A stretch of DNA of 64,000 nucleotides from Escherichia coli. GTDB lineage: Bacteria > Pseudomonadota > Gammaproteobacteria > Enterobacterales > Enterobacteriaceae. Both the position numbers and the translations under genes were made by a program. Of this stretch, positions 1-3,130 are shown in pieces. Location of the stretch: the NCBI RefSeq assembly GCF_044324875.1, contig NZ_CP172185.1; one strand, written 5' to 3'. The notes below the pieces were generated by a model that was not told the DNA's origin, did no database searches, and saw only the letters and a program-made list of their open reading frames with translations. How positions within the stretch are numbered: the stretch's first letter is position 1; the number at the start of each line of letters is the position of its first letter.

Positions 1-1197
1 GGGCGTCTCGACAGCCTGCAACTGCTGCACTTCCACCTCGGTTCGCAGATGGCGAATATTCGCGATATCGCGACAGGCGTTCGTGAGTCCGCGCGTTTCT
101 ATGTTGAGCTGCACAAGCTGGGCGTCAATATTCAGTGCTTCGACGTCGGCGGCGGTCTGGGCGTGGACTATGAAGGCACCCGTTCGCAGTCCGACTGTTC
201 GGTGAACTACGGCCTCAATGAATACGCCAACAACATCATCTGGGCGATTGGTGATGCGTGTGAAGAAAATGGTCTGCCACATCCGACGGTAATCACCGAG
301 TCGGGTCGTGCGGTGACTGCGCATCACACCGTGCTGGTGTCGAATATCATCGGCGTGGAACGTAACGAATACACGGTGCCGACCGCGCCTGCAGAAGACG
401 CACCGCGCGCCCTGCAAAGCATGTGGGAAACCTGGCAGGAGATGCACGAACCGGGAACTCGCCGTTCTCTGCGTGAATGGTTACACGACAGCCAGATGGA
501 TCTGCACGACATTCATATCGGCTACTCTTCCGGCACCTTTAGCCTGCAAGAACGTGCATGGGCAGAACAACTCTATCTGAGCATGTGCCATGAAGTGCAG
601 AAGCAACTGGATCCGCAAAACCGTGCGCATCGTCCGATTATCGACGAACTGCAGGAACGTATGGCTGACAAAATGTACGTCAACTTCTCGCTGTTCCAGT
701 CGATGCCGGACGCATGGGGGATCGACCAGTTGTTCCCGGTTCTGCCACTGGAAGGGTTGGATCAAGTGCCGGAACGCCGCGCTGTGCTGCTGGATATTAC
801 CTGTGACTCTGACGGTGCTATTGATCACTACATCGATGGTGATGGTATTGCCACGACAATGCCAATGCCGGAGTACGATCCAGAGAATCCGCCGATGCTC
901 GGTTTCTTCATGGTCGGCGCATATCAGGAGATCCTCGGCAATATGCACAACCTGTTCGGTGATACCGAAGCGGTTGACGTGTTCGTGTTCCCTGACGGTA
1001 GCGTAGAAGTAGAACTGTCTGACGAAGGCGATACCGTGGCGGACATGCTGCAATATGTACAGCTCGATCCGAAAACGCTGTTAACCCAGTTCCGCGATCA
1101 AGTGAAGAAAACCGATCTTGATGCTGAACTGCAACAACAGTTCCTTGAAGAGTTCGAGGCAGGTTTGTACGGTTATACCTATCTTGAAGATGAATAA
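1..1197 (+). CDS. speA: Biosynthetic arginine decarboxylase, C-terminal ~399 codons (5' end outside window)
   Basis: Frame open from base 1; translation matches the SpeA C-terminus and ends ...[11 protein letters not shown]. Confidence 0.95.
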
Positions 1198-1212
1198 TTA
1201 AGATTATTCCGC

Positions 1213-1260
1213 TGGCGGGTCGATTTATTTACGTAAATCGGCCCGCTTTCTTTTTATATA
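1213..1260 (+). terminator. Putative intrinsic terminator downstream of speA
   Basis: Imperfect inverted repeat gcgggtcgattta/taaatcggcccgc followed by a T-rich tract. Confidence 0.45.
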
Positions 1261-1342
1261 TTCTTAAAAATAATTTAGCTGCTTTTCTTATTAAATAATC
1301 CCCCTACAATCGCTGCATTAATTAAATACAGAGGGAACGGTT

Positions 1343-2074
1343 ATGAAAAAAGGGAAAGTACGTAGCGCGTTGATAGCATTAGCCGTGCTGCTGGCCGGTT
1401 GTTCCAGTAATGCGCAGTATAATAGCAGTGCATCGGGCAATGTCGGCACCGCCTGGGGTGGGGATGTGCACTCATCGGTTCAGGGCGTATCTGCTGAGCG
1501 AGCCTGGCGCGATCCGGCAGAGATGATCGTTATTAGTTATTCGACTAATGTTCCTTCCGGCTATGACCGCGTTTATAGCATTCGTATTAACGAACTGGAA
1601 TATGCTATTCGCGATGGTAATTTTAATTCTCTACCTATTACGCGTTTTTATGATTCATCCAATAATGAACCACGCTATATTGTCCATGCCAGAGTCGGAA
1701 TGAATTATCAATTATATGTCCGTAATTACAGTCGTAACACCAACTACGAGATCGTTGCTACGGTTGATGGCCTGGATGTGCTGAACGGCAAGCAAGGTTC
1801 GCTGAATAACAACGGCTATATTGTGAATGCCGGAGATTCATTAGCGATTAAAGGATTCCGCAAAGATAAACATACCGAAGCGGCTTTTCAGTTCGCCAAC
1901 GTTGCTGATTCCTACGCAGCCAATTCGGCGCAAGGCGATGTGCGTAATACCGGGGTAATCGGCTTTGCCGCCTTTGAATTACAAGGTCCGACGCAAAACG
2001 CGCTGCCGCCGTGCTCTGGACAAGCCTTTCCGGCAGATAACAATGGCTATGCGCCGCCACCGTGTCGGAAATAG
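1343..2074 (+). CDS. Putative lipoprotein of unknown function (243 aa), apparently accessory
   Basis: ATG preceded by a GAGGGA ribosome-binding site; N-terminus MKKGKVRSALIALAVLLAGCSS has a lipobox (LAGC); AT-rich, N/Y-rich codon usage unlike flanking speA/speB; two Cys near the C-terminus. Confidence 0.6.
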   Translation: MKKGKVRSALIALAVLLAGCSSNAQYNSSASGNVGTAWGGDVHSSVQGVSAERAWRDPAEMIVISYSTNVPSGYDRVYSIRINELEYAIRDGNFNSLPITRFYDSSNNEPRYIVHARVGMNYQLYVRNYSRNTNYEIVATVDGLDVLNGKQGSLNNNGYIVNAGDSLAIKGFRKDKHTEAAFQFANVADSYAANSAQGDVRNTGVIGFAAFELQGPTQNALPPCSGQAFPADNNGYAPPPCRK

Positions 2075-2141
2075 CAACCTCGCTTGATGCCTCGTCCATT
2101 TAAGGCGATAATTAGCACAAACTTGTGTTTCGCAAATCCAA

Positions 2142-2181
2142 CCCTTCCTCGTCGGGCCTAACGACGCGGAAGGGTTTTTTT
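2142..2181 (+). terminator. Intrinsic terminator between the lipoprotein gene and speB
   Basis: Stem cccttcc...ggaaggg with a nested inner hairpin, followed by a 7-T run. Confidence 0.6.
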
Positions 2182-2209
2182 ATATCGACTTTGTAATAGG
2201 AGTCCATCC

Positions 2210-3130
2210 ATGAGCACCTTAGGTCATCAATACGATAACTCACTGGTTTCCAACGCCTTTGGTTTTTTACGCCTGCCGATGAACTTCCAGCCATATGACA
2301 GCGATGCTGACTGGGTGATTACTGGCGTGCCGTTCGATATGGCCACTTCTGGTCGTGCGGGGGGACGCCACGGTCCGGCAGCGATCCGTCAGGTTTCGAC
2401 GAATCTGGCCTGGGAACACAATCGCTTCCCGTGGAATTTCGACATGCGTGAACGCCTGAACGTCGTGGACTGCGGCGATCTGGTATATGCCTTCGGAGAT
2501 GCCCGTGAGATGAGCGAGAAGCTGCAGGCGCACGCCGAGAAGCTGCTGGCTGCCGGTAAGCGTATGCTCTCTTTCGGTGGTGACCACTTTGTTACGCTGC
2601 CGCTGCTGCGTGCTCATGCTAAGCATTTCGGCAAAATGGCGCTGGTACACTTTGACGCCCACACCGATACCTACGCGAACGGTTGTGAATTTGACCACGG
2701 CACCATGTTCTATACCGCGCCGAAAGAAGGTCTGATCGACCCGAATCATTCCGTGCAGATTGGTATTCGTACTGAGTTCGATAAAGACAACGGCTTTACC
2801 GTTCTGGACGCCTGCCAGGTGAACGATCGCAGCGTGGATGACGTTATCGCCCAGGTGAAACAGATTGTGGGTGATATGCCGGTTTACCTGACCTTTGATA
2901 TCGACTGCCTGGATCCTGCATTTGCGCCGGGAACCGGTACGCCGGTGATTGGCGGCCTGACCTCCGATCGCGCTATTAAACTGGTACGCGGCCTGAAAGA
3001 TCTCAACATCGTTGGGATGGACGTAGTGGAAGTGGCTCCGGCATACGATCAGTCGGAAATCACCGCTCTGGCTGCGGCGACGCTGGCGCTGGAGATGCTG
3101 TATATTCAGGCAGCGAAAAAGGGCGAGTAA
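2210..3130 (+). CDS. speB: Agmatinase (agmatine ureohydrolase)
   Basis: 306 aa; full-length match to SpeB ([22 protein letters not shown]...), arginase-family motifs, AGGAG ribosome-binding site. Confidence 0.97.

Follow-up and report, generated by a model that had tools for sequence, protein, structure and literature searches.

The 64,000-nucleotide stretch of Escherichia coli DNA analyzed here (the window; position 1 is its first letter, and all features described lie on the + strand) begins within speA, which runs past the left edge, and continues into speB. This report concerns a gene for a predicted lipoprotein that lies between the two. The speA stop codon occupies positions 1195-1197 and the speB ATG begins at 2210, which leaves an interval of 1012 bp (1198-2209) in which the lipoprotein gene and frames antisense to it are the only open reading frames (ORFs). 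In E. coli K-12 MG1655, speA (b2938) and speB (b2937) are 137 bp apart and no gene is annotated between them. An earlier note on this DNA, which was correct about the short K-12 gap, had described the gene as an AT-rich insertion bracketed by its own terminator-like hairpins. It had named the presence of the gene at this position in K-12 as an observation that would overturn this description, and the MG1655 genome was checked and has no gene there. The features of the interval are collected in Table 1.

Table 1. Features of the speA-speB interval and its flanks, in window coordinates
Feature	Position	Strand	Basis and remarks
3' part of speA (biosynthetic arginine decarboxylase)	1-1197	+	ORF list, RefSeq annotation of matching loci; context only
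Intrinsic-terminator-like hairpin (stem 1214-1247) and T-rich tail after speA	1214-1257	+	Terminator scan, fold, covariation; gene-carrying allele only
Putative sigma-70-type promoter of the lipoprotein gene	1282-1310	+	Weak -35 CTTTTC (1282-1287), -10 TACAAT (1305-1310); proposed from conservation
Shine-Dalgarno sequence GAGGGA, 6 nt 5' of the ATG	1331-1336	+	Read from the sequence; purine-rich block kept across genera
Lipoprotein gene, 243 aa and stop	1343-2074	+	ORF, homology, selection; RefSeq "lipoprotein," "membrane protein," or "hypothetical protein"
Predicted signal peptide (aa 1-19) and lipobox L17-A18-G19-C20, Ser21 at +2	1343-1402	+	Sequence; family alignment
Predicted globular all-beta domain (~aa 33-215), DUF7918-related core	1439-1987	+	
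C-terminal tail with motif AFPAD..YAPPP and Cys224/Cys241	1988-2071	+	Alignment; low to medium pLDDT; cysteine positions
Promoter-like TTGATG-17-GATAAT upstream of speB; assigned to speB, not to the lipoprotein gene	2084-2112	+	Promoter scan, conservation
Conserved hairpin (2140-2176) and T7 run, part of the speB leader shared with K-12	2140-2181	+	Fold, identity to the K-12-type allele, covariation
speB (agmatinase)	2210-3130	+	ORF list, RefSeq annotation; context only

The base composition of the gene differs from that of its neighbors. Its GC content is 48.7% and its GC content at third codon positions (GC3) is 46.1%, compared to 54.4% and 62.1% for speA, 55.7% and 63.4% for speB, and a GC content of 51.5% for the whole window. 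Few of the window's 34 long ORFs (6%) have a GC3 as low. The 145-bp spacer 5' of the gene contains 33.8% GC. The lower GC content that had been claimed relative to the flanking genes is thus real, while the label "AT-rich" is apt for the upstream spacer but describes the ORF to a mild degree only.

The distribution of the gene within the species was surveyed in 5,426 complete E. coli genomes. A full-length gene is found at this locus in 3,550 genomes, including O157:H7, O111:H8, O145, sequence type 131 (ST131) strain EC958, ABU 83972, VR50, and enterotoxigenic E. coli (ETEC) strains. The empty junction of the K-12 type is found in 1,867 genomes (∼34%) and is essentially 100% identical among them. 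The remaining handful of genomes carry partial or disrupted variants. RefSeq names the gene product "hypothetical protein" in most genomes and "membrane protein" or "lipoprotein" in others. Truncated or frameshifted alleles occur among the homologs P0025, P0036, P0052, and P0071; one E. coli form, with 448 member sequences, is 174 amino acids long and 98% identical, a fragment of 181 amino acids with 88% identity resembles Shigella dysenteriae fragments in AFDB, and Salmonella Kentucky has a set of frameshifted variants. These alleles are consistent with a gene that is dispensable and decaying in some lineages.

Beyond E. coli, orthologs with 53 to 75% identity come next after speA in Salmonella, Citrobacter, Klebsiella, Kluyvera, Kosakonia, Phytobacter, Intestinirhabdus, and Entomohabitans, and the gene holds the same position next to speA in Escherichia whittamii and in cryptic-clade Escherichia, for a total of about nine enterobacterial genera. 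In Escherichia albertii, a fragment of the gene adjoins speB at a contig end, and the Escherichia fergusonii copy, known from clustering and not from its locus, falls in the same 90% protein cluster. Synonymous divergence (dS) is 0.06 within E. coli (to O157), 0.30 to 0.36 to other Escherichia, and >2 or saturated to other genera. The ratio of nonsynonymous to synonymous divergence (dN/dS) between species is 0.07 to 0.14. The comparison of composition with speA and speB gave the same result in every genus tested, with a GC3 of 0.44 to 0.51 for the gene versus 0.58 to 0.74 for speA/speB. This indicates that low GC3 is a stable trait of the gene, which probably reflects weak codon bias and not recent import. 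A search around the segment for bracketing direct or inverted repeats, insertion sequences, and integrases found none. Two further loci, from Citrobacter sp. 18056 (L022) and Chryseobacterium sp. 18061 (L023), gave equal match statistics (64% identity, E = 2e−102); the L023 copy does not adjoin speA, and its Chryseobacterium label may reflect contamination or mislabeling.

Horizontal acquisition, in which some E. coli strains gained a foreign, AT-richer gene between speA and speB, would fit the GC3 of 0.46 against 0.62/0.63 in the neighbors, the AT-rich upstream spacer, and the absence of the gene from K-12 and 34% of complete genomes. We regard it as highly improbable and already largely refuted: the same locus is occupied in about nine genera as well as other Escherichia, divergence grows with taxonomic distance while the GC3 deficit stays the same in every genus, there are no repeats, insertion sequences, or integrase, and it is the empty allele that is near invariant. 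Because the locus is shared across genera together with its GC3 deficit, mobile signatures are lacking, and the empty allele hardly varies, ancestral presence followed by loss is favored over the insertion that had been claimed. Judged from these comparisons, the Enterobacteriaceae carried the gene between speA and speB ancestrally, it is under purifying selection, and the K-12-type allele arose secondarily, through one deletion.

The possibility that the interval is noncoding and the 243-codon frame accidental is vanishingly small. It could draw on the "hypothetical protein" label carried by most genomes and on the fact that expression is predicted from sequence only, but the dN/dS of 0.07 to 0.14, a full-length frame intact in 3,550 genomes and many genera, a confident AlphaFold2 (AF2) fold, and thousands of homologs speak against it. 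The earlier note had allowed that the ORF might lack conservation; homologs at 56 to 75% identity across enterobacterial genera, together with the signature of selection, refute this.

The interval contains transcription signals on both sides of the gene. The hairpin that follows speA (stem 1214-1247) has 15 pairs in the terminator scan and a fold of −24.1 kcal/mol (z = −5.2), is conserved with compensatory changes in 13 enterobacterial loci, and is absent from the K-12-type allele. The AT-rich spacer that comes after it holds a TAnnnT element conserved across genera (TACAAT, 1305-1310). Because a terminator follows speA, a conserved −10 element and Shine-Dalgarno sequence precede the gene, and a hairpin with a run of seven T residues (T7) lies downstream, the pattern supports a separate transcription unit with a putative promoter. 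The strong terminator-like hairpins that flank the gene, and the conserved −10 element that it has to itself, argue against its cotranscription with speA or speB.

The downstream hairpin (2140-2176, followed by T7; fold of −24.4 kcal/mol, z = −4.3) is identical in the K-12-type allele. The speB leader was compared in the K-12 spacer (NC_000913.3) and in loci L005, L007, L013, L017 to L020, L024, L025, and L028. Over 11 sequences from five genera, the hairpin keeps 14 pairs, of which two show compensatory changes, and its loop (GGGCCTAAC) hardly varies; Intestinirhabdus also carries it. A promoter-like element, TTGAAG-17-GATAAT, lies 5' of speB in most genera compared and takes a diverged form in the K-12 allele. 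The order of elements in the leader (2084-2209) is a promoter-like TTGA(A/T)G-17-GATAAT, ∼25 nt, the hairpin, T7, and the speB Shine-Dalgarno sequence. An Rfam scan of the interval, this hairpin included, matched no family. On this comparative evidence, the hairpin at 2140-2181 belongs to a leader conserved in front of speB and is not specific to the lipoprotein gene, although it is placed where transcripts of that gene would be expected to terminate. The position of a terminator between a promoter and speB suggests that speB may be controlled by attenuation or antitermination. Of the two hairpins that the earlier note had assigned to the gene (1213-1260 and 2142-2181), both are real; the first is better described as the terminator following speA in the gene-carrying allele, and the second belongs to speB.

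The 243-amino-acid product begins with MKKGKVRSALIALAVLLAGC. Its predicted signal peptide, MKKGKVRSALIALAVLL, has a K/R-rich n-region and a hydrophobic h-region, an architecture common to the family. The lipobox, L17-A18-G19-C20, matches [LVI][ASTVI][GAS]C, and Cys20 is kept in at least 90% of 37 aligned family members. In E. coli, Asp at position +2 confers avoidance of the Lol system, and lipoproteins with other residues go to the outer membrane. Here, the residue at +2 is Ser21 and not Asp, which agrees with the rule for outer membrane sorting. Further cysteines are found at positions 224 and 241, and the composition includes 9.9% N, 9.1% S, and 5.8% Y. These properties agree with those listed before (lipobox LAGC, N/Y/S-rich, two C-terminal cysteines), and the protein is a predicted outer membrane lipoprotein.

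Homologs share 56 to 75% identity with the protein across enterobacterial genera and ∼40% in Variovorax, Paracoccus, and other Proteobacteria. The family comprises 2,913 representative clusters (50% identity) at E ≤ 1e−3, drawn from Enterobacterales, Pseudomonas, Acinetobacter, Neisseria, Kingella, Moraxella, Burkholderiales, Paracoccus, Inquilinus, and others. In the alignment of 37 members, an N-terminal segment, LGTxWGE..S.V..V...R, and a C-terminal motif, AFPAD..YAPPP, are conserved, and the core contains the invariant residues R53, Y66, Y122, N128, E136, D142-G-L, G149, G158-Y159, and G171-F-R173. Longer homologs differ only by low-complexity Pro/Ala/Ser-rich tethers after the lipobox; a search of them for domain fusions found no Pfam domains. 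One homolog of 465 amino acids (P0253) is a tandem duplication of the whole unit, and another (P0276) is a circular permutant within the family.

Scans of the protein against Pfam, NCBIfam, PADLOC, and PHROGs returned nothing beyond signal peptide noise, and a comparison of PDB sequences with the family profile gave 0 matches at E ≤ 10. AF2, run with the 37-sequence alignment, produced an all-beta model with a predicted local distance difference test score (pLDDT) of 81.7 and a predicted template modeling score of 0.78. The pLDDT is mostly >90 for residues 31 to 215, while the signal peptide, the tether, and residues 217 to 233 are disordered. Foldseek matches to this model in AFDB50 are nearly all unnamed "lipoprotein" or "uncharacterized" entries, with one labeled amidase. 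The best matches among solved structures, which recur in AFDB, are MATH/TRAF-C-type beta-sandwiches (USP7, SPOP, and TRAF6) and ToxA/Avr2-like sandwiches, which share the same general eight-stranded antiparallel topology.

A profile search from distant family members reached a bacterial sister group that carries DUF7918 (Pfam PF25534), which occurs in fungal proteins and some bacterial secreted proteins. The sister group protein P0314 matches PF25534 at 5e−06 over model positions 10 to 225 of 228, and an hhalign comparison of the lipoprotein and sister family alignments gave 98.9% probability (E = 2.3e−17, 131 columns). The predicted fold of the lipoprotein is that of DUF7918 models. In the sister group, the segment GTGYGE..S..V.F..R follows the core; in the lipoprotein family, GTxWGE..S..V..F.R precedes it. 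Because the segment order is swapped, the two branches are circular permutants. Another difference is the predicted lipidation of the lipoprotein; the sister proteins carry plain signal peptides. The E. coli protein has no Pfam match even at E ≤ 10, PF25534 included, and 22 distant family members likewise fail to match PF25534. Since the E. coli protein fails the Pfam model, we call the lipoprotein a divergent DUF7918 relative with a circular permutation; by Pfam's criterion it is not a member. A search of the accessible literature library found no paper mentioning DUF7918, a domain without known function. The conclusion of the earlier note that no function could be assigned thus holds: there is no Pfam, NCBIfam, or PDB match, and the DUF7918 relatives have no known function.

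Together, these features outline how the protein could work. It would be exported by Sec, diacylglycerylated at Cys20 by Lgt, freed of its signal peptide by LspA, and N-acylated by Lnt at the cysteine. With Ser, not Asp, at position +2, it would be carried by the Lol system to the inner leaflet of the outer membrane. There, a flexible tether, ∼12 residues in this protein and >100 Pro/Ala/Ser-rich residues in some relatives, would hang a beta-sandwich of ∼180 residues in the periplasm. A single conserved polar/aromatic constellation on this domain (T36, W38, S44, R53, Y66, Y122, N128, E136, D142, D145, Y159, R173, and Y191) would bind, or possibly modify, a ubiquitous envelope ligand, and in enterics a disulfide between Cys224 and Cys241 probably closes the Pro-rich tail AFPAD..YAPPP. 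Because so many polar residues are invariant and there is no obligate partner, a ligand that is small or universal is favored over a lineage-specific protein partner. In its predicted layout, the protein resembles LpoB, a tethered E. coli outer membrane lipoprotein: both combine a lipobox and a Lol-type sorting signal with a compact globular domain, which a disordered tether of variable length would allow to extend into the periplasm. The two have no sequence or fold relationship and no partner is known for the lipoprotein, which, unlike LpoB, is dispensable in a third of E. coli strains.

We think it likely that the interval holds a genuine accessory gene with its own transcription signals that encodes an outer membrane lipoprotein of a divergent, circularly permuted branch of the DUF7918 superfamily. 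Several observations weigh against this account or parts of it. Filled and empty alleles are 98 to 99% identical up to the speA stop codon and again from position 2133 on, but 58 to 60 bp at the right junction are only ∼62% identical between alleles (window 2075-2132 versus 1599-1658 of L001, a K-12/B-type allele). This segment is still recognizably homologous (z = 4.2 versus shuffles), and a simple recent deletion does not fully explain it. Import of the empty allele by recombination could have produced the diverged junction, as could fast change of the speB promoter after the loss. The consensus promoter scan did not call a promoter for the lipoprotein gene, and the one proposed here comes from conservation alone. 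Expression, lipidation, and localization of the protein are predicted from the sequence, and the periplasmic orientation, as opposed to surface exposure, is an assumption. The term "ligand-binding" derives solely from the pattern of invariant polar residues, in a protein whose relatives have no known function, and literature searches by locus tags and keywords gave nothing on this gene. A deletion by recombination between the two copies of the hairpin plus TTTTTATAT was also considered for the empty allele and was rejected, with a copy spacing of 926 bp versus an allele difference of 875 bp.

Gene context was examined by calling and clustering ORFs in 80 loci from ∼33 genera. No conserved gene partner was found in them beyond lineage-specific synteny, and the loci of the sister family are likewise solitary, with no conserved neighbor. 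Because no neighbor is conserved across genera, the protein is more readily seen as a self-contained binder or enzyme than as a subunit of an operon-encoded machine. Adjacent same-strand genes elsewhere include hybE, phnE, a Ctp protease gene, ahcY, and genes for a TonB receptor, an AraC regulator, and methyltransferases. In Comamonadaceae, the homolog sits within the his operon between hisD and hisC (positions 5001-6205 of L009, Variovorax boronicumulans, and the Variovorax loci L049 to L084). In Variovorax, the next gene begins 6 bp downstream and encodes a 122-amino-acid secreted protein with a weak Pfam match to Rap1a, a type VI secretion system (T6SS) immunity protein; this Rap1a-like neighbor is confined to Variovorax and Xenophilus. 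Trabulsiella guamensis carries a 40% identical paralog, also with two C-terminal cysteines, between ynfD (DUF1161) and ynfC (L036, 5944-8039). This paralog lies two genes from a true speG, encoding spermidine N1-acetyltransferase (NF011709, 391 bits versus a cutoff of 218). In a Neisseriaceae metagenome-assembled genome, a pyridoxal phosphate-dependent amino acid decarboxylase is encoded directly upstream of the homolog on the same strand. Homologs of SpeA, SpeB, SpeG, and decarboxylases were sought in all loci and were found only in the Enterobacteriaceae and in these two isolated cases.

The position of the gene raises the question of a link to polyamines, in which the lipoprotein would bind or sense a periplasmic amine (agmatine, putrescine, or a related compound) or modulate amine flux, and such a role would explain why the gene has been retained between speA and speB. 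The speA-speB position is conserved across the Enterobacteriaceae, and with speG near the Trabulsiella paralog and the decarboxylase upstream in the Neisseriaceae genome there are three independent amine gene neighbors (rough post hoc P of ∼0.01). The invariant acidic and aromatic residues are of the polyamine-binding kind; proteins of the PotD/PotF type bind polyamines through acidic and aromatic residues. Against this, the enteric synteny counts as a single ancestral event, the surrounding region keeps its gene order in any case, and terminators insulate the gene from speA and speB. An island separates the gene from speB in Salmonella, and an extra ORF separates it from speA in Entomohabitans. 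No SpeA or SpeB homolog flanks the gene in ∼25 other genera, where neighbors include his genes, hybE, phnE, and ahcY, and K-12 runs the speA/speB pathway without the lipoprotein. A polyamine role is therefore weakly suggested at most by gene position, and we consider it unlikely. The more specific proposal that the lipoprotein is an envelope component of enterobacterial polyamine physiology, a periplasmic agmatine- or putrescine-binding or -sensing protein kept beside speA and lost from K-12, appears distinctly unlikely. If it were true, K-12-based models of the pathway would omit the lipoprotein, and the first functional handle would be gained on the DUF7918 superfamily, which is common to bacteria and fungi.

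A second functional alternative, to which we also give little credence, is a protective inhibitor or immunity protein, located in the periplasm, that neutralizes an incoming hydrolase, such as a lysozyme or a type VI amidase or muramidase, in the manner of MliC/PliC/Ivy or orphan T6SS immunity proteins. The protein would fit this description in being a small lipoprotein, rich in beta structure and encoded by a stand-alone gene, that is sporadically lost and widespread in host-associated Proteobacteria; the Variovorax partner with its weak Rap1a match would fit as well. That partner is restricted to one lineage, however, no effector genes lie near the examined loci, and the protein matches no inhibitor or immunity family in Pfam, NCBIfam, or PADLOC. 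In addition, many of its polar residues are invariant across distant phyla, which is unusual for arms race proteins.

Thousands of genome annotations already include the gene, and that K-12 lacks it is ordinary pan-genome variation. Three points are new: the gene was ancestrally present and then lost, and not inserted; the hairpin downstream of it belongs to a conserved leader of speB; and a family of several thousand clusters, which has no Pfam or NCBIfam model, is connected by sequence and fold to DUF7918, including the permutation between the two. The gene is present in the sampled pathogenic lineages (O157:H7, ST131, ABU 83972, and ETEC) and in Salmonella, Klebsiella, and Citrobacter; functional screens in K-12 could not have found it because K-12 lacks it. 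Copy number varies elsewhere in the family: Acinetobacter sp. strain ANC 3832 carries two tandem paralogous copies on the same strand (L060, 4765-6612).

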